Shown here one piece after another: positions 1,096 through 61,719 of a stretch of 64,000 bases of DNA. The notes beneath the pieces were generated by a model that saw only the letters and a list, made by a program, of their open reading frames with translations, was not told the DNA's origin and did not search any database. Every line of letters begins with the position of its first letter. Position 1 is the stretch's first letter. Position numbers and translations under genes: made by a program. This DNA comes from Candidatus Giovannonibacteria bacterium. GTDB taxonomy: Bacteria > Patescibacteriota > Minisyncoccia > UBA11713 > 2-01-FULL-45-33. Location of the stretch: contig JACOXN010000003.1 of assembly GCA_016176295.1 (NCBI GenBank), positions 28,212 through 92,211 on the forward strand. Reading direction: 5' to 3'.

Positions 1096-4000
1096 AAAAC
1101 AAATTCGGGGGCGAGCTGATGGCTATATTGTTTTCAAAAGTTAAATTCAAAACGTTTAAAGTCGAGTTGGCGGTAAGGATGGCGAGAGAGTTGCTGGAGA
1201 ATAATATACCATCAAGCGATGCGTTTGAATTTAGTATCATAAGACCTGTCCCCGGCCCGCCTCCGGGAGCGCTTGTGTGTTCGCTGAATTCAAAATTGGC
1301 AAGCGAAATGTTTGAGCCTCCGTCTATTCTCATACCGATGTTATAATTTTTCTCAATTTTCCCCTGGTTCAAATTTAGTGTCCCCCCGTTCACGCTAAAC
1401 CCCGCGCACTGATTGTTGCAGGCTGCCGGGCCTCCCCCGCCGTGGCGCAAAGTAAATCCGGCGCCGTAAGCCGCACTCCCGGAATTCATAACGATGCCTT
1501 TCCATTGGCCGGGAGCCGAATCACCCAACGAAGAAAACAAAATATCGTCCGCCGAAACTCCTTTCATTTCCAAAGTTCCATTGATTTCCAACGAACTCGA
1601 ATCACCAGCACCCAATATCTTTGTTCCCGATTCTATAACCAAGCCGAAATTCTGCGGCACGGAAAGCGTGGTCCTTGAGGGAATAATGTAAGGCAACGGA
1701 TTGGCCGAAAGCGTGGTTGTGCCGGAAGAAGAAGTGAGAGATCCGGAAAGCGAAATACCATTTATTCCATTGCTGGAACCGCCGTTTCCGGAAAAAATTC
1801 CAATCCTGCCATTTGACGTAACGGCATCGGAAATATTTCCGATAAATTCGTTATCCGAAACCGAAGCATCCGAACTTTGCACATTGAGCCCGTAATAATT
1901 CCCGGAAAAAATGTTACGAGAAATATTCGGCGTTCCTCCGCCTATTGTCAGGCCGCTCTGATATATTGTAGAGTTTTCGGAAAACAAATTGTCTGAAATA
2001 TCGGCATCTGATCCGGATACTTTTAGGCCGTCGCTCCAGGATTTTTCAAAAATGGAATGAGTAATCTCCGCCGGAGAACTTTCGACAGCTACCATGGAAC
2101 GAAAGTTATTCGGCGTATTGCCGTACCATCTTCCACCGTAACGAAATCTGGAGTGAGATATTACATTTTGTGATGCAGGGCCGACCAACAATACATTCTT
2201 CCAGGCACCCGGAGACGGCTCCGTGGTGGTGGCATCGCCATTCGTATCTCCGCCGAATTCATCGTCAAAGATGCTGGTGAAAACTATCGGTTTCTCTCCG
2301 GTTCCTTCCGCTTTTAAAGTGCCTTCGATGTTGAGCAGCGCATCGCTGCCGAATTTGATAACAACTCCCGGCTCGATATTTAACACGACGCTAGGTTTGA
2401 CTGTAAAATTTATATTTCTGGGGATAATGTACGGGCTTCTTCCGAAGATTAAAGTTTTGTCGCTTTCAAGAACCGAACCCGGAGCGATGATGTAATTCAG
2501 GCTATTCCGGTTTTTCGGAGTTGCCGATAAAAACAAACCATTTTTATCGTGCCCGCGCGTGACAACCGTGCTATCGGCGCTTCCCCAGTTGTACGGGTCC
2601 GAAGAAGAAATATCCGCATCCCTCCGTTCCATGCTGTATCCGCTTCCGAAGCTTGATCCGCCGCACCATCTGCCTTCGCAAAGAGGCACGCGGTCGATGG
2701 TTGTCGAACCCCGGCTTAAAATTAATACTTCTCCCGAATTTGAAAGTCCGGAACCCGCGGCTCCGCCAGCCGGCGGACCGCTGAAAGGTAAAATCAAATC
2801 AGCCGGAATGTCGCTTACGGTTTCATCGTTTGAACGCTCTATCAAAAAATATCCGTGAGCCGGTAAAACTCCGGAAAGCGGAAGGTAAGGCACGCCGTCC
2901 TCCGCTTTCAATACCCAGCCGCTAAGATCTATGGGCAGAGATGTGCGGTTATACAGTTCCATCCATTCGTCGGACGGGTCAGAGGGAGTTCCCATCCAGG
3001 CGACTTCGTTTATTACCACCGGGCTCGCCGAAACTTCAACGGTTTTGGAAAGAGGAGGGCTTTCGTTTCCGGTTGTGTCAACGGCTTTCGCGGAAAAAGA
3101 ATAAATTCTGTTGTCTTCGGCCGCAAAAACGGTCGAGGTGGCATGCGTATTTAAAAAATCAAAACCGCTGCAATAAAGTCCGCCGTTCATGCAAGAAATA
3201 TCATAGTACTCCAAGTCAGCTGTATCTGAATTCCATGCCAAAGTAAAAGATCCGGGATTTAAGAGGCATGATTCAAAAGATATGGAATCCGCACATTCGA
3301 GAATTGAGAAAGAAATATCGGGAGGAGTGACATCATTGGTCAACCCGGCAGGTTGACCAGGCGGGAAAACACTCGGTGTTTCAAGTGGTTCAACACCGAG
3401 TGTTGAGGAGCCAGGCAAATCGGAGGAGGGCGCGGCTTGCTCCAACGTCATCGTCGGAGTTCCTCCGCCAAATCCCGGCACGTACGGAATAGATGTTGGA
3501 ACCGGCGCTGGCGTTGGCACAATTTCATTGGATGTGAATTCTCCCAAAACTTCGCCTTCCGTACCTCCCCTCGCACACTCCCTGCCTGCCGGCAGGCAGT
3601 CTTCTAAAGGAGGAGAAATTGAATTGTTCTCGCCCGGCAGAGAAAAACTCGGTGCCGCTTCGGCAACAGTGTCGTTTCGCGGTAATGAGATTTGAAAAGC
3701 GCTCGCCGGAATTTCATCAATGAGCGGGGTCGGCTCCGCCTGCTCCGCCCCAAAAGTTCCGGCCACTGCCGAATATATTTTTTCCGACAATGGTATTCCC
3801 TTCGCCCATAATTCTTTGCTTTTCCTCTCCTTTTCCGCTTCCTCAAAAAATAATCTCATTACTCCCGCGCCGTGTAATACGGCCTGTTTGGAAAGATGTG
3901 ACCAGTAGTCGGTGAGGATTAGGTTATCAGGATCATCTAGAAAATAGTCTTTTTTCTCTGGACTTTGCCATTCAAATTTAGCTAATCGTGCAGCTAATAT

Positions 4001-4905: not shown

Positions 4906-5391
4906 CTAAAGCTCAACAATTTTCCAAACACCATTGGAACCCATTGCAATATCTATAGCCAAAGCTAATTGATTTACATCGTTGTAAATGTAAAAAGTAA
5001 AGCGCGAATCTCCGAGAGCTTTTTTCTCTTTTGGTCTATTTAAATCACTTACCATCAATGTTAGTTTGTTATTATCCTTAATCTTCTTTAAATTCTCTTT
5101 CCACTTTTCCTGGTCATCAATAATAAAATATTTCGCGGCCAAATCGGTGTCCCCGGCTTTTAAGGCATCAATGAAAAGCTGGAGGGTTTCTTCGGGGGTT
5201 TTGCCGCCGTAGGTGTCTGCCATGTACTTTTGCTCAAGCTCTTTCTGCAGCTCCTCGGCGCGTCGAGCGTCATCGCGCGGACCTTTTAGATTGTAGTAGT
5301 CAACGGCAAAAATAACGGCCAGCCCCAAAACAATCAGCCCCAAAAGCATCCCAAAGAATTTCCAAAAGTGTTTATTCGTCATCAGCTGCAT
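4906..5391 (-). CDS. Hypothetical membrane-anchored protein
   Basis: 161-aa ORF with an N-terminal hydrophobic anchor (FWKFFGMLLGLIVLGLAVIFAV) and a charged extracytoplasmic domain. No recognisable motif. Confidence 0.6.
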   Translation of the reverse strand: MQLMTNKHFWKFFGMLLGLIVLGLAVIFAVDYYNLKGPRDDARRAEELQKELEQKYMADTYGGKTPEETLQLFIDALKAGDTDLAAKYFIIDDQEKWKENLKKIKDNNKLTLMVSDLNRPKEKKALGDSRFTFYIYNDVNQLALAIDIAMGSNGVWKIVEL

Positions 5392-6498: not shown

Positions 6499-7059
6499 CT
6501 AGACTAATTTCGACTCACCCGAAAAATCACGGTAAGGATAAAATACAACGCCATGGAGCTCCAAAACATCCGTTCCGCAAGTTTTTGCTTTATGTCGTGC
6601 CTTATCTATATACTCCAGAAAAAGATTGTGATCCATTTTGAGATCTGTATATAGATCTTCCTTATCAAGCATAATATGTTTTGCGTTGATTTTTTTTATG
6701 ATTGCCTCAAGATTATTTACTCCGTTTTTTGTTTCGATCTTGGGCACAAGTCCAATGCTTGCGGGCAGCTGTTTGCGGATTTCATAAATTTTCAACGGGT
6801 CTTCAACGTTTGAAACGGCAAAATATTTAATATTTGGGAATTTTTTTACTAATGATAGAGTTTCCTTAAGCGTAATACTGGGCCGAGGCGGCTTGGAACG
6901 CCCCTGCGGATAATCCAGATAAACATCATGCTTAATTCTTTTCAGCAGACCAGTCAAAGAAACCAAGTCCTTTACCCAAGCAACATTTATACGAAGAACC
7001 GCCCCTTTGGGAAGCTTAAGCGGCGTTGTATCAAGAACATGGTGTGAAACTATCAGCAT
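6499..7059 (-). CDS. Minimal pyruvate-kinase-barrel-like protein (function unknown)
   Basis: 186 aa. The segments LRINVAWV, YFAVSNVEDPLKIYEIRKQL, LVPKIETKNGVNNLEAII and HIMLDKEDLYTDL parallel the PK A-domain blocks (MRLNFSHG, FIAASF.., SKIENQEG.NN.DEIL, GIMVARGDLG.EI). The B and C domains are missing and the RGDLG loop is altered. Confidence 0.4.
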   Translation of the reverse strand: MLIVSHHVLDTTPLKLPKGAVLRINVAWVKDLVSLTGLLKRIKHDVYLDYPQGRSKPPRPSITLKETLSLVKKFPNIKYFAVSNVEDPLKIYEIRKQLPASIGLVPKIETKNGVNNLEAIIKKINAKHIMLDKEDLYTDLKMDHNLFLEYIDKARHKAKTCGTDVLELHGVVFYPYRDFSGESKLV

Positions 7060-27477: not shown

Positions 27478-27527
27478 CAATTATCAATTTACAATTTTCA
27501 ATAAATGTTAAAATCATCAATTTTCAA
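27478..27527. repeat. Left inverted-repeat block flanking the four-helix-bundle ORF
   Basis: CAATTATCAAT (27478-27488) plus three AATTTTCAA 9-mers (27472, 27493, 27519). Reverse complement of the block at 27888-27929. Confidence 0.65.
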
Positions 27528-27889
27528 ACACCTCTGGATGAACGGCTAATTTTAGCAAAAATTAGAAGCAATTCATTTGCTTCTCTCCAAAATTTTTTTA
27601 TTTCTTCTGTTCGTTCTGAATTTGCTCTTGCCAGCAATCGTAACCAATGTTTCGTTTCTTTTATTTCTTTCTTCACTATGCCAATCTTATGAATAAAATC
27701 TTTTTTACTTTCCGCCTCTACTGCCTCACAATAGTTTGCCCCCGTTGATCCCGAAGAACCTACCAATTGATCAATAATTCTGCGGTTTACCACATCAATA
27801 CTTAAAGTTCTAACAAAATCAATAATTTCTTCCGCAAACTTTGCTGTTCTTTCCTCAAGATCAAACTTCTGATTTGATAATTTATCCAT
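27524..27889 (-). CDS. Four-helix-bundle protein (family formerly called '23S rRNA intervening-sequence protein')
   Basis: 121 aa. GANYCEAVEAESKKDFIHKIGIVKKEIKETKHWLRLL is the hallmark of this family. Confidence 0.8.
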   Translation of the reverse strand: MDKLSNQKFDLEERTAKFAEEIIDFVRTLSIDVVNRRIIDQLVGSSGSTGANYCEAVEAESKKDFIHKIGIVKKEIKETKHWLRLLARANSERTEEIKKFWREANELLLIFAKISRSSRGV

Positions 27890-36507: not shown

Positions 36508-37620
36508 TCATAAAAATCTTAAAATGTTTTCCGCCCTTCGGGTCCAGGTGTACTGCCCGGAATCACGATAAGCATTCGCGGCAAGGCGATCCGCTAATTT
36601 TTTATCTTTCAGAACTCTCTTAACCGCTTCCGCAAATGCCACGGGATTTCCAGCTTCCACCAAAACAGCAGTATTCTCATTCAGCACCTCTCTCACGCTG
36701 GGCAGGTCTGAAACCACGATGGGGCGCTTAGCCGCCATATATTCAAACATCTTCATCGGAGACATAAAGTAAGTATAATGAGTTGTCGCGGGAAAAGGCA
36801 TCAACAATATATCGAAAGCTTTTTGATAAAGCGCGACAATGCTCTGGGTCTGGTGGTCACGGAAAAAAGCCCTGCTTTTCAGCCCTTTGGAATCCGCAAG
36901 CTGCTGATACTCTACCACATGCCGGGGCTTTCCTCCCATGGCCACAAATATGACGTTTTCTTCAAGAAGCGGTAAAGCCTCAAGCACGTCAAGGAACCCT
37001 TTGTCCTCGCCCATAGTCTTAAAACGCCCGCAATAGCCGATAATTTTCTTATCCTGGGGCAAATTGAGCTTTTTCCGGGCTTCAGCCTTTGAAACATCTA
37101 TATCAAAAATGCCGGGATCAACCCCGTCCGGAGCGACAAATGTTTTATTGCGAATCAGACCATATTTTTCCGAGTACATATCGCGCAAATGCGAGGTAAC
37201 AAAAATATACTTATCCACGAAAAAAGATAAAACTTTTTCGGCAAACATGTCCGTACGGTTGTCTTCGATAAGCCTGTGTATCTCGTAAGCAAACTTGACC
37301 TTGAACCGGAAATAAAACTTATTGAAAAGAGCCATAAAAAACAAAAGCCGCGGCTCCCGGCAATAAATCCTGTCGATGCGGTTTTTTTTTGCGAATTTCA
37401 GATACTGAACCGCCAAAGAGTAACTTTTTAAATTGCCGAAATTTATTATTTGCAGGTTGTGTTCCGAAAGCCCCGCCTCGGCAGAGAGGTCGATCTTTGC
37501 GCCGCCGAGAAAAAAATTGGTTTTCATCTTATCTGCCAACGCTTTGGACATGGCGATTATCTGCATGCGGTTCGCAAGCCCGGAAGGATAGGTTATCGAA
37601 GTGGCGTAGATCAAACGCAT
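36508..37620 (-). CDS. Glycosyltransferase family 4 (tandem paralog 1)
   Basis: GT4 C-terminal domain. LYQKAFDILLMPFPATTHYTYFMSPMKMFEYMAAKRPIVVSDLPSVREVL is nearly identical to the next gene. Confidence 0.8.
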   Translation of the reverse strand: MRLIYATSITYPSGLANRMQIIAMSKALADKMKTNFFLGGAKIDLSAEAGLSEHNLQIINFGNLKSYSLAVQYLKFAKKNRIDRIYCREPRLLFFMALFNKFYFRFKVKFAYEIHRLIEDNRTDMFAEKVLSFFVDKYIFVTSHLRDMYSEKYGLIRNKTFVAPDGVDPGIFDIDVSKAEARKKLNLPQDKKIIGYCGRFKTMGEDKGFLDVLEALPLLEENVIFVAMGGKPRHVVEYQQLADSKGLKSRAFFRDHQTQSIVALYQKAFDILLMPFPATTHYTYFMSPMKMFEYMAAKRPIVVSDLPSVREVLNENTAVLVEAGNPVAFAEAVKRVLKDKKLADRLAANAYRDSGQYTWTRRAENILRFL

Positions 37621-37626
37621 AAATCT

Positions 37627-38961
37627 CTAATTTCTAATTGCTCTAATTATTAATTCAGCTCGCTTCTCCCACGTATAACTCTGAACGCCCTCATAAGCTC
37701 TCGCGGCCAGCTTTTCGCCCAAACCGGGATCGGACAGCAGTTTTTGGATGCCGTCCGCCAGACTTTTCGGATTCCCGGGCTCCACAAATATGGCGCTGGA
37801 TTCATTCAGTACTTCCCTGACACTGGGAAGGTCCGAAGCCACAATGGGACGCTTTGATGCCATGTATTCGAACATCTTCATCGGGGACATGTAGTAAGTA
37901 TAGTGCGTTGTGGCGGGAAAAGGCATTAAAAGGATATCGAAGGCTTTTTGGTATAGGGCAAGTTTATTTCTTGAAACTCTCTCGACATTTATCAGGCGAG
38001 CCAAACTTGATGCATCTAAAATTTCACTGCTCGCGCTTTCCGTTTCGCTAGCGCTTAACCCTCTCTCCGGGGGCTCCGACGCGCGTACGCGCTCCGAAAA
38101 GCGCTCGCTATCATTTGAAATTTTATCTGCACTTGGCCTAGATCCAACCGAAACAAAGTAGACATCATTTCTCGTCTCAGAAATTTTACGCAAGGCTTCC
38201 AAAATTTCTGAATGCCCTTTCTCCATTCCCATCGTTTGCAAACTTCCCGTGTAGCCCAAAAGAATTTTATCCTGGGGAAGATTCAGAGTTTTTCTGGCCT
38301 CCTCTTTTGAAATATTAATGTCAAAAACATCCAAATCCACTCCGTCCGGGGCCACCAAAATATCCATGTCGTTAAATCCGGCCCCTTTATATAATTCTTT
38401 TAAAGCCGCCGTAACCGCCACAATTTTGGAAGTTTTTTTCACGAAAAATTTATGGAGCCAAATCATGCTCCAGCGATGCGATTCAAAGATAGTTTTGAAA
38501 CCGAGTCGGGAAAACAGGAAAATAATTTCAGGGTTCCTTGAATATATCATCGCAGATCCACGCAGATTATCTGAAATCGCAGAATTACGCCGATTACTTG
38601 AACTATTAAATCCGCGCAGATTTTTTGCGTGAAAAAATAACTTGAACAAATAAAAAAAACTCTGGAGGAAAAAACCCAATTTTCTCAAGAAAAGCGGGGT
38701 TAAAGCGATAAAGTCGGGGACTGAAATTTTAGTGACGGTAAAATTTCTTTCGATGCCGTAATACTCGAACAAATCCTGCTTGATGTCATTTTTTCTCGTG
38801 GGGATTATCAATTCTACTTCTATATTATCCGCGTTTATCTGCGAACCAATCTGCGCGTATCCGCGCTTTTGCAATGCAAAAGCCTCGCACATTTTGGCTA
38901 CCTGGTAGCCGTGCGCTTTTTCGGTGGGAATGCGAAAGTTTGCGATATAAACCAATTTCAT
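37627..38961 (-). CDS. Glycosyltransferase family 4 (tandem paralog 2) with repeat-derived in-frame insertions
   Basis: Same C-terminal block (LYQKAFDILLMPFPATTHYTYYMSPMKMFEYMASKRPIVASDLPSVREVL). Has extra low-complexity segments (SADKISNDSERFSERVRASEPPERGLSASETESASSEILDAS; NLRGFNSSSNRRNSAISDNLRGSA; GYAQIGSQINADN). Confidence 0.8.
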   Translation of the reverse strand: MKLVYIANFRIPTEKAHGYQVAKMCEAFALQKRGYAQIGSQINADNIEVELIIPTRKNDIKQDLFEYYGIERNFTVTKISVPDFIALTPLFLRKLGFFLQSFFYLFKLFFHAKNLRGFNSSSNRRNSAISDNLRGSAMIYSRNPEIIFLFSRLGFKTIFESHRWSMIWLHKFFVKKTSKIVAVTAALKELYKGAGFNDMDILVAPDGVDLDVFDINISKEEARKTLNLPQDKILLGYTGSLQTMGMEKGHSEILEALRKISETRNDVYFVSVGSRPSADKISNDSERFSERVRASEPPERGLSASETESASSEILDASSLARLINVERVSRNKLALYQKAFDILLMPFPATTHYTYYMSPMKMFEYMASKRPIVASDLPSVREVLNESSAIFVEPGNPKSLADGIQKLLSDPGLGEKLAARAYEGVQSYTWEKRAELIIRAIRN

Positions 38962-38962
38962 A

Positions 38963-39613
38963 CTATTTTTTCAGAAGAAAAATGTAACCCAGAGGATATT
39001 TTTCTTTAAGCTGCGGCCTTAGCTTCAGTAAAACTCGGTCAAGTAAATAATATATGGGAAAAACCGCGAGCTTTAAAACGCCGGGCAGAGGAAACGAAAC
39101 CATAATATTGTAGCTTACCGCGCACGGCCCCAAACCGACTTCTTTGACGACTACATTCTTAAAACCGGCTTCCGCAAATATCTTCTTCAATGACTCCTTT
39201 GTATACCTGAAATAGTCATGCGGGTCCGCGTGATAGCTCATCATGAAAGGCACAAAACCCAAAACCTCGTTACCGGATTTAACGACCCTTTTTGCCTCGC
39301 CTATCAAAAACCTGTAATTATAAATATGTTCCAGAATGTTGAACATGAGCACCTGATCAACACTTTCATCCGCATACGGCAGCGGGTCTTTTTCAAGGTC
39401 TACGGTCTTGCCGATTGCATGCAGGCTTTTGAAATCAATATTTATAATCTCCGTACGGGGCTCTTTTTTTAAGAATTGAAAATAACTGGGGTTTACACCC
39501 CCGCCCACGTCAAGTACCTTTCCTTTGACCGTATAATTGGCAAGCTCCAGGTTCATCATTGTCCGGAGCAGACTTTTTTTTCTCCAAATCCCTTTAGCTA
39601 TTTTAAAAAACAT
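38963..39613 (-). CDS. Class I SAM-dependent methyltransferase
   Basis: VLDVGGGVNP SAM motif and VDQVLMFNILEHI. Start moved to the ATG at 39613 (MFFKIAKG...) because the upstream 51 codons of the track ORF merely translate repeat copy B. Confidence 0.7.
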   Translation of the reverse strand: MFFKIAKGIWRKKSLLRTMMNLELANYTVKGKVLDVGGGVNPSYFQFLKKEPRTEIINIDFKSLHAIGKTVDLEKDPLPYADESVDQVLMFNILEHIYNYRFLIGEAKRVVKSGNEVLGFVPFMMSYHADPHDYFRYTKESLKKIFAEAGFKNVVVKEVGLGPCAVSYNIMVSFPLPGVLKLAVFPIYYLLDRVLLKLRPQLKEKYPLGYIFLLKK

Positions 39614-39623
39614 GATTTTTAGA

Positions 39624-39759
39624 GACGGACGAATGAGTCTCTGAACGGGTTTTGCTGCCTTTTTGGCATGGTCTCCGCGAAGCGGAGCAAAAAGGTCAGC
39701 AACCCTCGGAGGCCGCCGCTGGGCGGCCGAGAATGAGTGAAGAGACTCAATCGTCCGTC
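39624..39759. repeat. Structured repeat element, copy B
   Basis: P0 39624-39632/39751-39759; P1 39635-39642/39741-39748; P2 39652-39665/39688-39702. P3 CTCCGC-GAA-GCGGAG at 39673-39687; P4 GGCCGCC-GCTG-GGCGGCC at 39711-39728. Intercistronic, between the GT4 stop (39747) and the methyltransferase start (39613). Confidence 0.8.
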
Positions 39760-40835
39760 GATTCAAATAAATTAATAAACTCTCTTACTCCTTTCTCTTT
39801 GCCAAATCCTTTGGAAAATTCCAGCGCTTCAATCCTGGCTTTATTATACGCTATTTCATCCGAAAGCAGAGACTTGATGCGGCCTTGGAAACATTCGATA
39901 TCACCGACTTCGCACAAATAATTTTCCAAAGATTTCGGCACGAGTTCCCGAATGCCGCCAATATTTGAAGCCACAAATGGCACACCCGACGCCATCGCTT
40001 CCAAAATAACGCGCGGCGAGCCTTCCTCGCGCGAAGGCATCAGAAAAACACGGGCGTCTTTAAAATATCTTACCACTTCAGCATTTGCTACGGGACCCAA
40101 AAGTTTTACTTTTCCCGTCAGACCGGAATTTTCAATTTCCAATTTACAATTTTCGAATTCCGGCCCGGCACCGATAACCACAAATTCCACGTCGTCATTT
40201 TTAAAAGCTTCAGCTATTTTGGGCACAAAATCAACTCCTTTTCTTTTTGACAAATGATGAACGAAGAGCACGATTTTCGGGGATAATTTCTTGTTGGCAT
40301 CTGGCTTGAATCTCTCCGTGTCTATCCAATTCGAAACCACGCGGTATTCTTTTACACCGTAACGCGCAACATACTCTTTGGCGAGCGACTCCGGGCCGGT
40401 GACCAAAATTGAGTTACGTAAAATAAACCGGAAAAGTTTTTCTTTGAGCCAATTTTGCTTAAAGAGCCACGGCATTCCGCGGTTCCAGTAAAAAACCTTC
40501 ACTTGGCGGCTAAGCCGCCAAGTGGTTAATAAGACTGCCAAAACGCCATAATAAGAATAGTGGACATAAAAACCCCTGAATCCCGAAGATAGAAGTTTGA
40601 AACACATCCAAAGCATCTCCAAAAAACGCAACGGTGGAAATTTGTATTTTTGAACATAAATCTGCGCCTCCCCTAAATCAATTTTTTGTCCGAAACTTAG
40701 TTTCGGACATTTTTCCACGATAACAAAAATATCCGCGGTCTTTGCCGCTTCGCGGATAAGCAGGTAATTATAAAAAAAATGGGTATCGGTACCCTCCTCG
40801 TAAATAGGTAAAATATAGGCAACTTTTGGTTTCAT
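39747..40835 (-). CDS. Glycosyltransferase family 4
   Basis: LFVHHLSKRKGVDF, VIGAGPE, FLMPSREEGSPRVILEAMASGVPFVASNIGGIRE (E-x7-E region). Confidence 0.85.
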   Translation of the reverse strand: MKPKVAYILPIYEEGTDTHFFYNYLLIREAAKTADIFVIVEKCPKLSFGQKIDLGEAQIYVQKYKFPPLRFLEMLWMCFKLLSSGFRGFYVHYSYYGVLAVLLTTWRLSRQVKVFYWNRGMPWLFKQNWLKEKLFRFILRNSILVTGPESLAKEYVARYGVKEYRVVSNWIDTERFKPDANKKLSPKIVLFVHHLSKRKGVDFVPKIAEAFKNDDVEFVVIGAGPEFENCKLEIENSGLTGKVKLLGPVANAEVVRYFKDARVFLMPSREEGSPRVILEAMASGVPFVASNIGGIRELVPKSLENYLCEVGDIECFQGRIKSLLSDEIAYNKARIEALEFSKGFGKEKGVREFINLFESTDD

Positions 40836-45719: not shown

Positions 45720-47171
45720 TTACTCCAGGCTGCGCATGGCGGCGTGCTTTATGAACACGATAGCCAAACTGCCCAATAAACTGAGCGCCAATCCGATCAT
45801 TAACCATCTGAAACCCGTAAATATGCTCCGTGGGGGAACGGAAGACGTCAATTGCTGCGGTGAAACGGACCCTGCTTCCGCATTGACAACAGGGACGGCA
45901 TTTAAAAGCGGCTTTGATGCGGAAGCCGAGGTGACAGATATTTTTTTGATCGGTTTCAAAGTTTCGTTAGCGGCTCCGGGCGTGGCTTTAGTTTCTGTCC
46001 ACTCGCCTTCCGAAAAGGAAAGGCTCTGTCCCGGCCCCAAAACGGCTGGATATTCCTCTGAAATCAATATTTTTCCATTCGGGTATAAAAGTCTGACTGA
46101 GCCCGCAGGCGCGACAGAAAAGCCCATCACTTCCTCGCTAAAAACCGGAAACGCTCCTGCCGCAAGAACAGTGTTTGCGGGGAAAAAAAACTTTGAACCG
46201 CCAAGGTCTAGGCCGAAATTAGAAATATCAATTTGTCTGGAAGAACTATTTTTTAATTCAATAAATCCTCCTCCCGCCTGTGCGCCCCACTGAGAAGGCC
46301 GCAGCTCGGAAATAACCAAAGGATTTTGTATCACGGCCGCTTTTAAAATATCGGAGGCCGAATAATCTCCCAGGGAAACGGAAAGATAAACCGTATAAGT
46401 CCCTGGGTACAGGAATGTATGCGTGACCTTTTTCCCCTGCAAGGTTGCTCCGTCGCCGAAGCTCCATGAAAATAGCGCGCTGGGGAGAGATTTACCGGCT
46501 CCGTCCTCGGCGATGCCCACAAAATCTGAAATTGCTCCGGCCAATACAGTTTTATCCGCGCCGGCATGTGCGGATATTTTAGTCTCCGGATTGGGAAGCC
46601 AGCCGGAATTTTCAGCGGGTACCGAGGAAGGATCCGCAGAATTATTCGGAGTCTCTTCCGCGCTCGGTGAAGAGCTTGAGCTGCTCGTTTCGGAATTGGC
46701 CGCTCTCGGCGTAGCTGCGGCCATCCCCCAGCCGGATGAAGTTTTTTGCAAAGTTTCTTTCGTAGTATTGCTGCCGCCCAAGGCCCAGTTTCCCGAACCG
46801 TCAACCCTGTCGACTTCCGCTCCCGCAACATTTTTTAGTATTAAAATTTCGCCTGAATTTGAAAGTCCGCTTCCGAAAGGCGCGATAAGGTCTGCCTCCA
46901 CCTCGGGCACGGTTGTGTCATCGGTCCTTTCAATGAGAAAATATCCTCCCGCCGGTATAGTTCCCGAAAGCTCCACATTCATTCCCCCGTCCTGGGAAAA
47001 TAGCGTCCAGCCGTTCAGATCCTCGCCGTCGTCGGAATATAACTCAAGCCACTCGTCGGACGCGGAGTTTTCCGTTCCCATCCAGGCAACTTCATTAATT
47101 ACCACGCCGGCGTAGGCGGGAAAACTGACTGAAATCAAAAATAATGCAATGAAAAAAGGTGATATTTTCAT
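45720..47171 (-). CDS. Secreted/anchored surface protein with two lamin-tail domains and a PKD-like domain
   Basis: Signal-like MKISPFFIALFLISVSFPAYA. LTD1 is VVINEVAWMGTENSASDEWLELYS..GWTL..GYFLIERTDD..LSNSGEILILKN. PKD-like segment FSWSFGDGATLQGKKVTHTFLYPGTYTV. LTD2 is LVISELRP..GGFIELKNSS. C-terminal TM anchor WLMIGLALSLLGSLAIVFI. Confidence 0.8.
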   Translation of the reverse strand: MKISPFFIALFLISVSFPAYAGVVINEVAWMGTENSASDEWLELYSDDGEDLNGWTLFSQDGGMNVELSGTIPAGGYFLIERTDDTTVPEVEADLIAPFGSGLSNSGEILILKNVAGAEVDRVDGSGNWALGGSNTTKETLQKTSSGWGMAAATPRAANSETSSSSSSPSAEETPNNSADPSSVPAENSGWLPNPETKISAHAGADKTVLAGAISDFVGIAEDGAGKSLPSALFSWSFGDGATLQGKKVTHTFLYPGTYTVYLSVSLGDYSASDILKAAVIQNPLVISELRPSQWGAQAGGGFIELKNSSSRQIDISNFGLDLGGSKFFFPANTVLAAGAFPVFSEEVMGFSVAPAGSVRLLYPNGKILISEEYPAVLGPGQSLSFSEGEWTETKATPGAANETLKPIKKISVTSASASKPLLNAVPVVNAEAGSVSPQQLTSSVPPRSIFTGFRWLMIGLALSLLGSLAIVFIKHAAMRSLE

Positions 47172-60633: not shown

Positions 60634-61719
60634 TTATTGGTTTTGTTTAGCGAGCGCAGACTTAATGATATGGTCCAAAAGCTTTGAAAAAGAAATTCCG
60701 GAAGCGGCGGCAGCTTTGGGAAGTAGACTCCGGGCAGTGAGGCCGGGAATAGTATTTATCTCAAGGATATAAATTTTAGCTCGATCTTTCGCCCAGATCA
60801 TATCAGTCCGCGAAAACCCGGAGCATCCGATAAGCACATGCGTTTTCAACGCGATGCCCTGGCATTCAGCCAAGATATCGTGCGGAACTTCTGCCGGAGT
60901 TATTTCATCCGAACCTGACTCGGCATATTTTGATTTGTAATCGAAAAAATCCCCCAGCTTGGGCACTATCTCTGTGGGCAGAAGCGGCGTTAAATTATTT
61001 TTACCGTCATCCAGCACTCCGCATGTGAGTTCAACTCCCGGGATAAATTCCTGTACCAAAATATTTTCTGAAGACATTGCCGCTTTTTTTACGGCTTTTC
61101 CAAGATCGGTTATTTTTTTTACGATGCTGACCCCGACGCTTGAGCCGCGGTCGGCAGGCTTCACCACCAAGGGAGCGCTGAACTTGTTTTCGATGTTTTT
61201 TAAAACTTGCTCGCTTTTATTCTTAAATTCCGAGGCTCCAAATGACATTGATTCCGGCATATTGAGCCCATTGGAAGAAAAAACTTGCTGTGAACGTATC
61301 TTATCCATGCCTAAAGCACTGGCCACAGCTCCAGACCCCGTGTAAGGAACCCCGGCGGAATCCAATATGGCCTGCACTTGGCCGTCCTCCCCGAACTCCC
61401 CGTGCATGGCGATGAAAACTACGTCTGCAAAAGAGCCGACGGAGTGGAAAAACTTTTCGGATGAAATTTCCAGGTGGGGGCGGCCGCCGCGGAATTTAAA
61501 TTCCGACCTTGTCCGCGGTGGGGCTAAGGAAATTTCAGATGAAAAGTTTTTTCCCGATGGTAAAAGCCATTCGCCTTTTTTGGTGATGGTCGCAAGCGTC
61601 GGCTCATATTTTGAGCGGTCCAAATACTGATGCACCATTTCCGCAGTCTTAAGAGACACTTCGTGCTCGCTCGAAGGGCCTCCTCCCAAAACCAAAACTT
61701 TTATCTTTTTCCTTGCCAT
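60634..61719 (-). CDS. ddl: D-alanine--D-alanine ligase
   Basis: VLGGGPSSEHEVSLKTA, FIAMHGEFGEDGQVQ, VVKPADRGSSVGV, INTIPGLT. Confidence 0.9.
   Translation of the reverse strand: MARKKIKVLVLGGGPSSEHEVSLKTAEMVHQYLDRSKYEPTLATITKKGEWLLPSGKNFSSEISLAPPRTRSEFKFRGGRPHLEISSEKFFHSVGSFADVVFIAMHGEFGEDGQVQAILDSAGVPYTGSGAVASALGMDKIRSQQVFSSNGLNMPESMSFGASEFKNKSEQVLKNIENKFSAPLVVKPADRGSSVGVSIVKKITDLGKAVKKAAMSSENILVQEFIPGVELTCGVLDDGKNNLTPLLPTEIVPKLGDFFDYKSKYAESGSDEITPAEVPHDILAECQGIALKTHVLIGCSGFSRTDMIWAKDRAKIYILEINTIPGLTARSLLPKAAAASGISFSKLLDHIIKSALAKQNQ

Follow-up and report, generated by a model that had tools for sequence, protein, structure and literature searches.

What is a GC-rich palindrome doing inside the reading frame of an apparently ordinary glycosyltransferase? 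The question is raised by a stretch of 64,000 nt (the whole of it referred to here as the window) from Candidatus Giovannonibacteria bacterium, a member of the Candidate Phyla Radiation (CPR, or Patescibacteria), taken from the forward strand of contig JACOXN010000003.1 of NCBI GenBank assembly GCA_016176295.1 (positions 28,212 to 92,211). Here, a GT4 glycosyltransferase gene on the minus strand carries a palindromic element of 121 nt, whose sense strand is the minus strand, i.e. the coding strand of the gene. In our reading, the element is probably a non-autonomous coding palindromic element of Candidatus Giovannonibacteria that resembles the Rickettsia palindromic elements (RPEs), being translated as a tolerated part of a surface loop of its host enzyme. 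The coordinates of its parts, and of related features in the window, are collected in Table 1.

The outline of the element had already been recognised in a first-pass annotation made from the letters of the window, and it holds up. Both halves of the 10-bp terminal inverted repeat that it described are found (TAAAATTTCA at 38017-38026 and TGAAATTTTA at 38116-38125), and the repeat is longer than first described, extending over 16 nt (38011-38026 / 38116-38131) with 88% complementarity. The nested pair inside it (GCGCTTTCCG at 38033-38042 with CGAAAAGCGC at 38095-38104) forms nine Watson-Crick pairs out of ten, the tenth being a G:U wobble in the coding-strand RNA, and the 12-nt palindrome GCGCGTACGCGC (38081-38092) is exact. 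The element was also said to be richer in GC than its surroundings, and the 84-nt centre indeed has a GC content of 65%, against 41-43% in the adjoining 100-nt windows and 43% across the whole 64 kb. The coding-strand RNA is predicted to form a single long hairpin of -52.6 kcal/mol (z = -5.3), a stability reached by 0 of 200 dinucleotide shuffles.

The host gene is one of a tandem pair. Its paralogue adjoins it at 36508..37620 (370 aa, 44% identical) and, as the first-pass annotation had observed, does not have the extra peptide SADKISNDSERFSERVRASEPPERGLSASETESASSEILDAS. The peptide is missing from 14 of the 15 other GT4 proteins aligned (the paralogue counted among the 15), including P0003, P0004, P0005, P0007 and more distant GT4s. 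The sole relative among them to carry it is P0002, the closest orthologue (65% identical), encoded at the syntenic locus L004 of GCA_030688645.1. With a distribution in which P0002 alone has the insert and the other relatives do not, the peptide is not an ancestral domain feature. The top Foldseek matches of the GT4 model are MshA, PimB' and BshA. In the AlphaFold model, built from this GT4 alignment, the mean predicted local distance difference test score (pLDDT) is 77.8, and the insert (residues 277-315) falls below 50, while the rest is a confident GT-B fold. The proposal that the insert is tolerated as a disordered segment in a coding loop is thus supported, as the insert forms a low-confidence excursion from a confident fold. 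Two other lineage-specific inserts of this protein, at residues 34-44 and 119-134, score equally poorly. Besides the palindromic element, the gene contains two in-frame inserts at 38551-38630 and 38826-38870, with a GC content above their surroundings and GCGGAT/GCAGAT-type short repeats. One of them, NSSSNRRNSAISDNLRGSA, is unique to this genome, and the other, RGYAQIGSQINADN, is common to P0001-P0004, P0001 being identical to the GT4 of the window; both have a pLDDT below 50.

The GT4 feature is one copy of a dispersed repeat family. Further copies were sought with exact 20-mers from the core, and then with a covariance model (R1) built from seven copies. The exact 20-mers recovered a core copy in the GTDB representative Candidatus Giovannonibacteria RIFCSPHIGHO2_02_FULL_44_11 (L009), and copies at five distinct sites on seven metagenome contigs from the Joint Genome Institute (JGI). 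The 84-nt unit is near-identical in L004, L009, L014, L015 (two copies), L016 and L019. R1 scores its seven source copies at 106-111 bits and finds an eighth copy on L015 (101 bits). At lower scores, it also finds variants that have diverged, in L022 at 71.5 bits and in L024 at 35.5 bits. L024 is from the same sample as the window contig, L001, and the two may come from one genome. Since the copies were recovered by exact 20-mers, the apparent invariance of the core is inflated by ascertainment. Matches in L007, L008, L010 (high-GC genomes), L012, L018, L020 and L021 had only a 20-mer in common with the element and were discarded as due to chance. No second copy was found in the 64-kb window, either by blastn-short or by the covariance model with its filters off, and the element had no match in phage, plasmid or viral records.

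In all, no fewer than six further genes in related genomes contain the core. Their products are functionally unrelated: the CCA-adding enzyme, MiaA, GatB, HrcA, a PMT_2-type membrane glycosyltransferase and, on a weak Pfam match, a HolA-like protein. Two copies on L015, in GatB (5275-5358, plus strand) and in MiaA (6939-7022, minus strand), lie 1.6 kb apart in opposite orientation. The first-pass annotation had suggested a small hairpin-forming element, like a repetitive extragenic palindrome (REP) or a miniature inverted-repeat transposable element (MITE), that landed in a coding loop; the same core in the genes of relatives supports this, and the contrary possibility that it had named, that no other copy of the element exists anywhere, did not hold.

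The ten copies share the same fold, with energies from -53 to -92 kcal/mol. Outermost is an AT-rich stem whose length varies from 10 to more than 25 bp, followed inwards by an A-rich asymmetric loop and a clamp of 2-3 bp. Inside the clamp, a tandem G·A / A·G mismatch that never changes leads to P1, a stem of 10 bp; beyond a GAG/AAA internal loop lies an irregular stem (P2) in which CGCGUACGCGC pairs with GCGCUAGCG. Innermost are a short stem (P3, AGCCC/GGGUU) and an apical loop with one free position, 38067, at which all four bases occur across the seven aligned canonical copies (alignment A3). The only other change between 38046 and 38091 in these seven copies is in P2 of L019, a C to U at 38085. 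Helix 1, made up of the clamp and P1, has compensatory double changes in 6 of its 12 pairs across the seven copies, and 98.4% of the alignment cells are paired; no shuffle out of 500 matches this covariation, and all slid controls collapse. The pairs of P2 and P3 are invariant, hence covariation is uninformative for either. The outer arms have an ungapped identity of ~38% between copies, and their duplex energy averages -25.2 kcal/mol within a copy versus -12.6 +/- 4.5 kcal/mol between copies. The element is modular, with a GC-rich, near-invariant core unit set inside AT-rich, copy-specific arms. Among the Rfam 15 covariance models, which include self-cleaving ribozymes and introns, none reached its gathering score in the window, and nothing relevant was returned within 37900-38250 at E <= 10.

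The canonical 84-nt unit has stops in four of its six frames, and the two stop-free frames, one on each strand, read SERFSERVRASEPPERGLSASETESAS (sense) and LLALSVSLALNPLSGGSDARTRSEKRSL (antisense). All seven independent canonical insertions are in a stop-free frame, six in the sense orientation and one, in HrcA, in the antisense; were the frame of no consequence, such a pattern would arise with a probability of (1/3)^7, or ~5e-4. The lengths of the inserts are always multiples of three. The HrcA copy has gained two TAG codons in the sense frame, which HrcA does not read. The restriction to the two stop-free frames, together with the stops in the unread frame of HrcA, is the main argument for translation over splicing or bypass, and we infer that the element is translated within the host protein and not removed. 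Expected tryptic peptides of the GT4 insert include ASEPPER and GLSASETESASSEILDASSLAR. The peptide SERVRASEPPxRGLSASETE is conserved in six proteins, and the copies in HrcA and L022 encode a wholly different one from the opposite strand; the existence of such antisense copies rules out selection for one particular peptide.

In the CCA-adding enzyme, the surface loop between NA(I/M)A and IDPFGG holds differing inserts in relatives that are 72-95% identical. The loop has 6-8 residues in insert-free relatives, and the length of the enzyme ranges from 455 to 577 aa (loci L009 and L022-L025, proteins P0121-P0199). In L009, the loop contains the canonical core in sense orientation; in L022, a variant in antisense orientation; and in L024, a variant folding at -92 kcal/mol, whose apex holds a nested hairpin and whose outer stem pairs perfectly over 25 bp. 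The insert of L023 (1785-1905) has similar arms around a different centre, several other inserts are of low complexity, including KSDF/PGKSDF-type repeats, and the site is empty in P0122 (L025), from the same genome as L004. The loop is a hot spot of insertion and turnover. In L022 and L024, an inverted copy of the 5' host flank is found on the 3' side and is missing from the empty allele. The stem of L009 extends into the conserved LIDPF codons of the enzyme, and the empty allele in L025 still has AAGGGAT...ATCCCTT. Such patterns suggest that the arms undergo palindrome extension and collapse by template switching. Template switching alone, without selection, could also yield 'compensatory' stem changes.

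Table 1. Coordinates of the palindromic element, its host gene and related in-frame hairpins (positions in the window; sequences of stems as sense RNA)
Feature	Position	Strand	Basis or remarks
Whole palindromic element, outer arms and conserved centre	38011..38131	-	Inverted repeat I1, RNA fold, shared family fold
5' outer arm (sense), TGCAGATAAAATTTCA	38116..38131	-	AT-rich; with the ..GA(T/A)AAAATTC.. motif common to other hairpin elements
3' outer arm (sense), TGAAATTTTAGATGCA	38011..38026	-	Pairs with the 5' arm
Conserved 84-nt unit: 2-bp clamp, tandem G·A, P1 stem, P2/P3 core, apical loop	38027..38110	-	Recurs in other genes; R1 110 bits, E = 1e-25
P1 stem, 5' strand, GCGCUUUUCG	38095..38104	-	Covariation
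P1 stem, 3' strand, CGGAAAGCGC	38033..38042	-	Covariation
Core between the P1 arms	38046..38091	-	Alignment A3
P2 pairing	38081-38091 with 38046-38054	-	
P3 pairing	38069-38075 with 38057-38063	-	
Apical loop	38064-38068	-	
Host gene: intact GT4 glycosyltransferase, GT-B fold, 444 aa; second of two tandem paralogues	37627..38961	-	Pfam Glycos_transf_1, Glyco_trans_1_4
Codons of the inserted peptide SADKISNDSERFSERVRASEPPERGLSASETESASSEILDAS, GT4 residues 277-318, 42 aa	38008..38133	-	Without counterpart in insert-free relatives
Second coding hairpin, peptide KNFSSEISLAPPRTRSEFKFRGGRPHLEISSEKFF, arms CATCTGAAATTTCC / GGAAATTTCATCCG	61448-61551	-	In the D-Ala-D-Ala ligase (Ddl) open reading frame, 60634..61719
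Third in-frame hairpin, peptide PAENSGWLPNPETKISAHAGADKTVLAGAISDF, arms CTGAAAATTCCGG / CCGGAGCAATTTCAG, with yet another centre	~46520-46625	-	In the LTD/PKD-domain open reading frame, 45720..47171

If the element is indeed an RPE-like coding palindrome, its history may be pictured as follows. The unit would have been copied into a permissive surface loop of GT4 before the genome of the window and that of GCA_030688645.1 diverged. It would have persisted by virtue of a length that is a multiple of three and a stop-free frame, being transcribed and translated with the host protein as an excursion of ~42 residues, probably disordered, that leaves the GT-B fold undisturbed. The hairpin would be kept by compensatory change in its stems, brought about by selection acting on a single-stranded form or by template switching from one arm to the other. 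Our best guess as to mobility is a copying process that depends on the hairpin or on a single strand, and that may be supplied in trans. We infer that such an element is essentially selfish.

A number of observations weigh against this picture. The copy number seems low, at one canonical copy in the 64-kb window even with the filters of the covariance search off, and the known copies are all in coding sequence, with none intergenic. No transposase was found among the 20 window open reading frames (ORFs) scanned that lie outside sugar metabolism, no Y1-transposase domain in the window ORFs scanned, and no RAYT in the DNA examined. By inspection, the flanks of the ten copies show no consistent direct repeat that would mark a target-site duplication, and the boundaries of the element are blurred, the extension of the arms varying by copy. 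Two protein-database searches with the 42-aa peptide gave no match, the exhaustive one, by phmmer, at E <= 0.001, although the query's own protein was likewise missed and these negatives are therefore uninformative. A decaying selfish insert would be expected to diverge near the neutral rate, but the core of the GT4 orthologue pair is identical at 87 of 90 nt. Third-position identity is 97% in the core and 50% in the remainder of the gene, a difference with P = 2e-8. Codons that specify the same residue are identical in 27 of 28 cases in the core, compared with 47% elsewhere, and two of the three core differences are non-synonymous. The arms beside the core show roughly the divergence of the remaining gene. 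The core is under constraint at the level of its nucleotides. Concerted evolution is disfavoured as its cause, as the two L015 copies differ from one another at several core positions, and by more than the L015-MiaA copy differs from those of other genomes, which it matches. The copy in L024, likely from the same genome as the window, is also highly diverged. Copies within a genome are thus not homogenised, which makes ongoing gene conversion a poor explanation of the core identity. There is also a bias between strands, with 37 G:U against 2 A·C in the stems of the sense strand, including those of two copies antisense to their host gene, and in all seven canonical copies the sense strand folds 3-19 kcal/mol better than the antisense. 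With the two L015 copies lying in opposite orientation, the favoured strand does not coincide with the mRNA strand or with a fixed strand of replication, and a fixed orientation relative to replication was rejected on the same grounds.

These results can be read in other ways, two of which take the constraint on the core as their starting point. In one, the 84-nt core would be a functional structured nucleic acid, RNA or single-stranded DNA, held by purifying selection at each locus, e.g. as a protein-binding or a recombination/processing site; its genic location would be due to the scarcity of intergenic space in ultra-compact genomes, and the peptide would be a tolerated by-product. The conservation of the core far above host synonymous sites and its near-identity in seven different genes argue for this, as do its asymmetric internal loops and its tandem G·A, which stay constant next to a stem that covaries, the excess of G:U even in host-antisense copies, and the lack of homogenisation. 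Although it is the main rival, we hold it to be unlikely, because the core is found in both orientations relative to transcription, and the opposed L015 pair gives it no consistent mRNA- or replication-strand context. It matches no Rfam family, its P2 and P3 stems, which never vary, are without covariation, and its invariance is in part a matter of ascertainment. The diverged or interrupted variants in L015-GatB, L022 and L024, in which the core has changed, persist in-frame, and so the exact sequence is seemingly dispensable to the host. The other is wider in scope and likewise unlikely: that this is a new kind of hairpin module, mobile or maintained, and specialised for the coding regions of ultra-compact CPR genomes. 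Its asymmetric core of ~55-84 nt would be kept nearly invariant by selection as a single strand, strand-specific whatever the orientation of the host gene, and would be delivered into palindromes or nucleate them; the arms would lengthen as host codons beside them are duplicated, templated and inverted, and would later collapse. If this were true, loops such as that of the CCA-adding enzyme would be recurrent sites of insertion, inversion and turnover.

Three further explanations do without a tolerated and translated mobile element. The insert might be removed or skipped, as a tiny mRNA intron or by a translational bypass like that of the yeast mitochondrial byp elements, and so never appear in the protein. 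A long and very stable hairpin that brings its flanks together, and conservation of nucleotides rather than amino acids, would suit such a process; the use of stop-free frames by every canonical copy, with stops in HrcA only where they are not read, is however expected of a translated insert and unneeded in one that is removed. The insert lengths are always multiples of three, and no ribozyme or intron family is matched at E <= 10. We consider removal very unlikely. It is more improbable still that the insert is a lineage-specific peptide module (a linker, interaction motif or modification site) selected at the protein level, with the palindrome incidental. The recurrence of one peptide in six proteins is what such a module would produce, but conservation here is of codons, with most of the few differences non-synonymous, the host proteins are functionally unrelated and the segment is predicted at low confidence; the different peptide given by the opposite strand in HrcA and L022 already contradicts it. 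Least credible of all is a local origin within GT4, by hairpin-templated (quasi-palindrome) mutation or as an assembly artefact, with no mobile element involved. Template switching can make and extend palindromes, and some arms in the CCA-adding enzyme look like inverted host flanks, so that local hairpin-templated mutation is possible as the origin of the outer arms alone. As the origin of the core, it is refuted by the presence of the same non-palindromic 84 nt in seven unrelated genes of several genomes. An artefact of assembly was rejected, since the identical 444-aa protein is encoded on contigs of three independent sequencing runs and in an NCBI metagenome-assembled genome.

Taking the element as a coding palindrome of the RPE kind, its closest analogue among known systems is the RPE itself. 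As summarised in PMC10969869, the families RPE-1 to RPE-10 are palindromic repeats of ~100-150 bp inserted in-frame in unrelated genes (Ogata et al. 2000, Science 290:347; Ogata et al. 2002, Genome Res 12:808). The GT4 element is likewise a palindromic repeat with a predicted long hairpin and a size within this range, lying in-frame in housekeeping genes that have nothing in common, in a reduced genome, with a conserved peptide, a tolerant host fold and no known transposase. It also occupies the type of site at which RPEs are found, the GT4 insert having a pLDDT below 50 and the insert of the CCA-adding enzyme lying in a variable loop. Unlike RPEs, it belongs to the CPR and not to the Alphaproteobacteria, has a GC-rich, near-invariant asymmetric core within copy-specific AT-rich arms, is conserved in this core above host synonymous sites, has wobbles strongly biased to one strand, is apparently low in copy number and, in the copies seen so far, lies in coding sequence only. 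Given the different phylum and the richness of the core in GC, homology to the RPE families is very unlikely, and the element is better regarded as an analogue than as a member of RPE-1 to RPE-10. RPE-1 is reportedly retained in the mRNA and translated, as seen by reverse transcription PCR.

Other small repeats offer partial parallels. In-frame fusions of MITEs to ORFs have been described for QMITE1/2 of Coxiella (PMC5896051), and ERIC, BOX and Correia elements are further examples (PMC10969869). The element resembles these in being small and dispersed, with terminal inverted repeats (the 16-nt arms), no encoded transposase and some in-frame insertions, and the similar terminal arms (..CTGAAAATTC..) across several families here recall MITE subfamilies mobilised by one transposase. 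MITEs normally have target-site duplications and lie mostly between genes, whereas no consistent duplication is seen here, and no related insertion sequence was found among the window ORFs scanned or in phage and plasmid records. Against the usual pattern, conservation is lower in the terminal repeats than inside them. REP and REPIN sequences mobilised by RAYT transposases are of 20-40 bp, extragenic and high in copy number, with a GTAG or CGTC end tag (PMC3733652). They too are imperfect palindromes, and REPs act as single-stranded hairpins with strand-specific recognition in which G:T pairs and bulges are tolerated. In contrast, the GT4 element is intragenic, ~120 nt long and low in copy number, and none of the features looked for in REP/RAYT systems was found. 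In the mitochondrial genes of Nematomorpha, long inverted repeats occur in functional coding genes with both arms translated (PMC6649704). Some arms here similarly run into conserved host codons, e.g. LIDPF, but the Nematomorpha repeats are perfect, gene-specific and made of conserved coding sequence, while the present family is dispersed with a shared core foreign to its hosts. The mobile GC clusters of yeast mitochondria, including byp, are GC-rich hairpins that spread in an AT-richer compact genome, coding regions included. Translational bypassing of the byp elements was reportedly described by Lang et al. in PNAS in 2014. In byp, the frame is interrupted and skipped by the ribosome; here, it is always open, which favours read-through translation over bypass of the byp type. 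Full-text searches of the literature did not turn up any description of such elements in CPR/Patescibacteria.

The GT4 element is not the only hairpin of its kind in the window, as a free-energy scan and an inverted-repeat search returned further in-frame hairpins with similar arms. The arms of the hairpin in Ddl resemble those of the GT4 element while its centre differs, and its homology to the insert that L023 has in the CCA-adding enzyme (L023:1785-1905) runs through the centre; it thus represents a second family with a common arm motif. The region of the LTD/PKD hairpin folds at -97 kcal/mol. Several core families thus have the arm motif ..CTGAAAATTC / GAATTTTCAG.. in common, as MITE subfamilies do their terminal repeats. 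Perfect palindromes that are very short, rich in GC and translated in-frame were also seen, at L004:10001-11359, at L006:1269-2447 and at 3316-3510 of the window, which suggests that this lineage commonly has coding hairpins, of various sizes. Examples are CCTGCCTGCCGGTAGGCAGG (CLPVGR), CCTGCCTGCCGGCAGGCAGG (LPAGRQ) and GGAAGTCCGACTTCC (GSPTS), along with STLGVEPLETPSVF and GQPAGLT in a 1231-aa LTD protein.

Outside the genes, an intergenic multi-stem structured repeat occurs twice on the plus strand, at 39610-39775 and 943-1105 ('copy A/B'), and forms the most stable local fold of the window (-82 kcal/mol). Of its 48 predicted pairs, 15 are changed on both sides between the copies and still paired, and it has no Rfam match, which makes it a candidate for an unclassified structured RNA or mobile element. 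The first-pass annotation had been cautious about linking the GT4 element to this repeat, and rightly so: the covariance model of the element does not match either copy, and a relation between the two was rejected. Elsewhere in the window, the ORF at 27524-27889 (minus strand), which corresponds to the gene at L001:12360-12622 with a match to PF05635 (23S_rRNA_IVP), lies inside a polysaccharide-biosynthesis cluster.

In-frame 'selfish' palindromes have long been regarded as a peculiarity of Rickettsia. The family described here is unrelated and behaves in the same way, inserting into essential genes for translation, replication, chaperone control and the cell envelope. Its hosts, the CPR bacteria, likewise have tiny genomes. 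Set beside Rickettsia, it suggests that coding palindromes recur where non-coding space is nearly nil. The conservation of the core and its strand-biased wobbles would provide a testable handle on whether such a palindrome has a function or passes through a defined single-stranded intermediate, which to our knowledge has never been settled for RPEs. Elements of this kind are a source of new protein loops, and account for some of the odd inserts of low complexity, and of the variation in length, seen among CPR proteins, with consequences for the annotation, alignment and structure prediction of these proteins.

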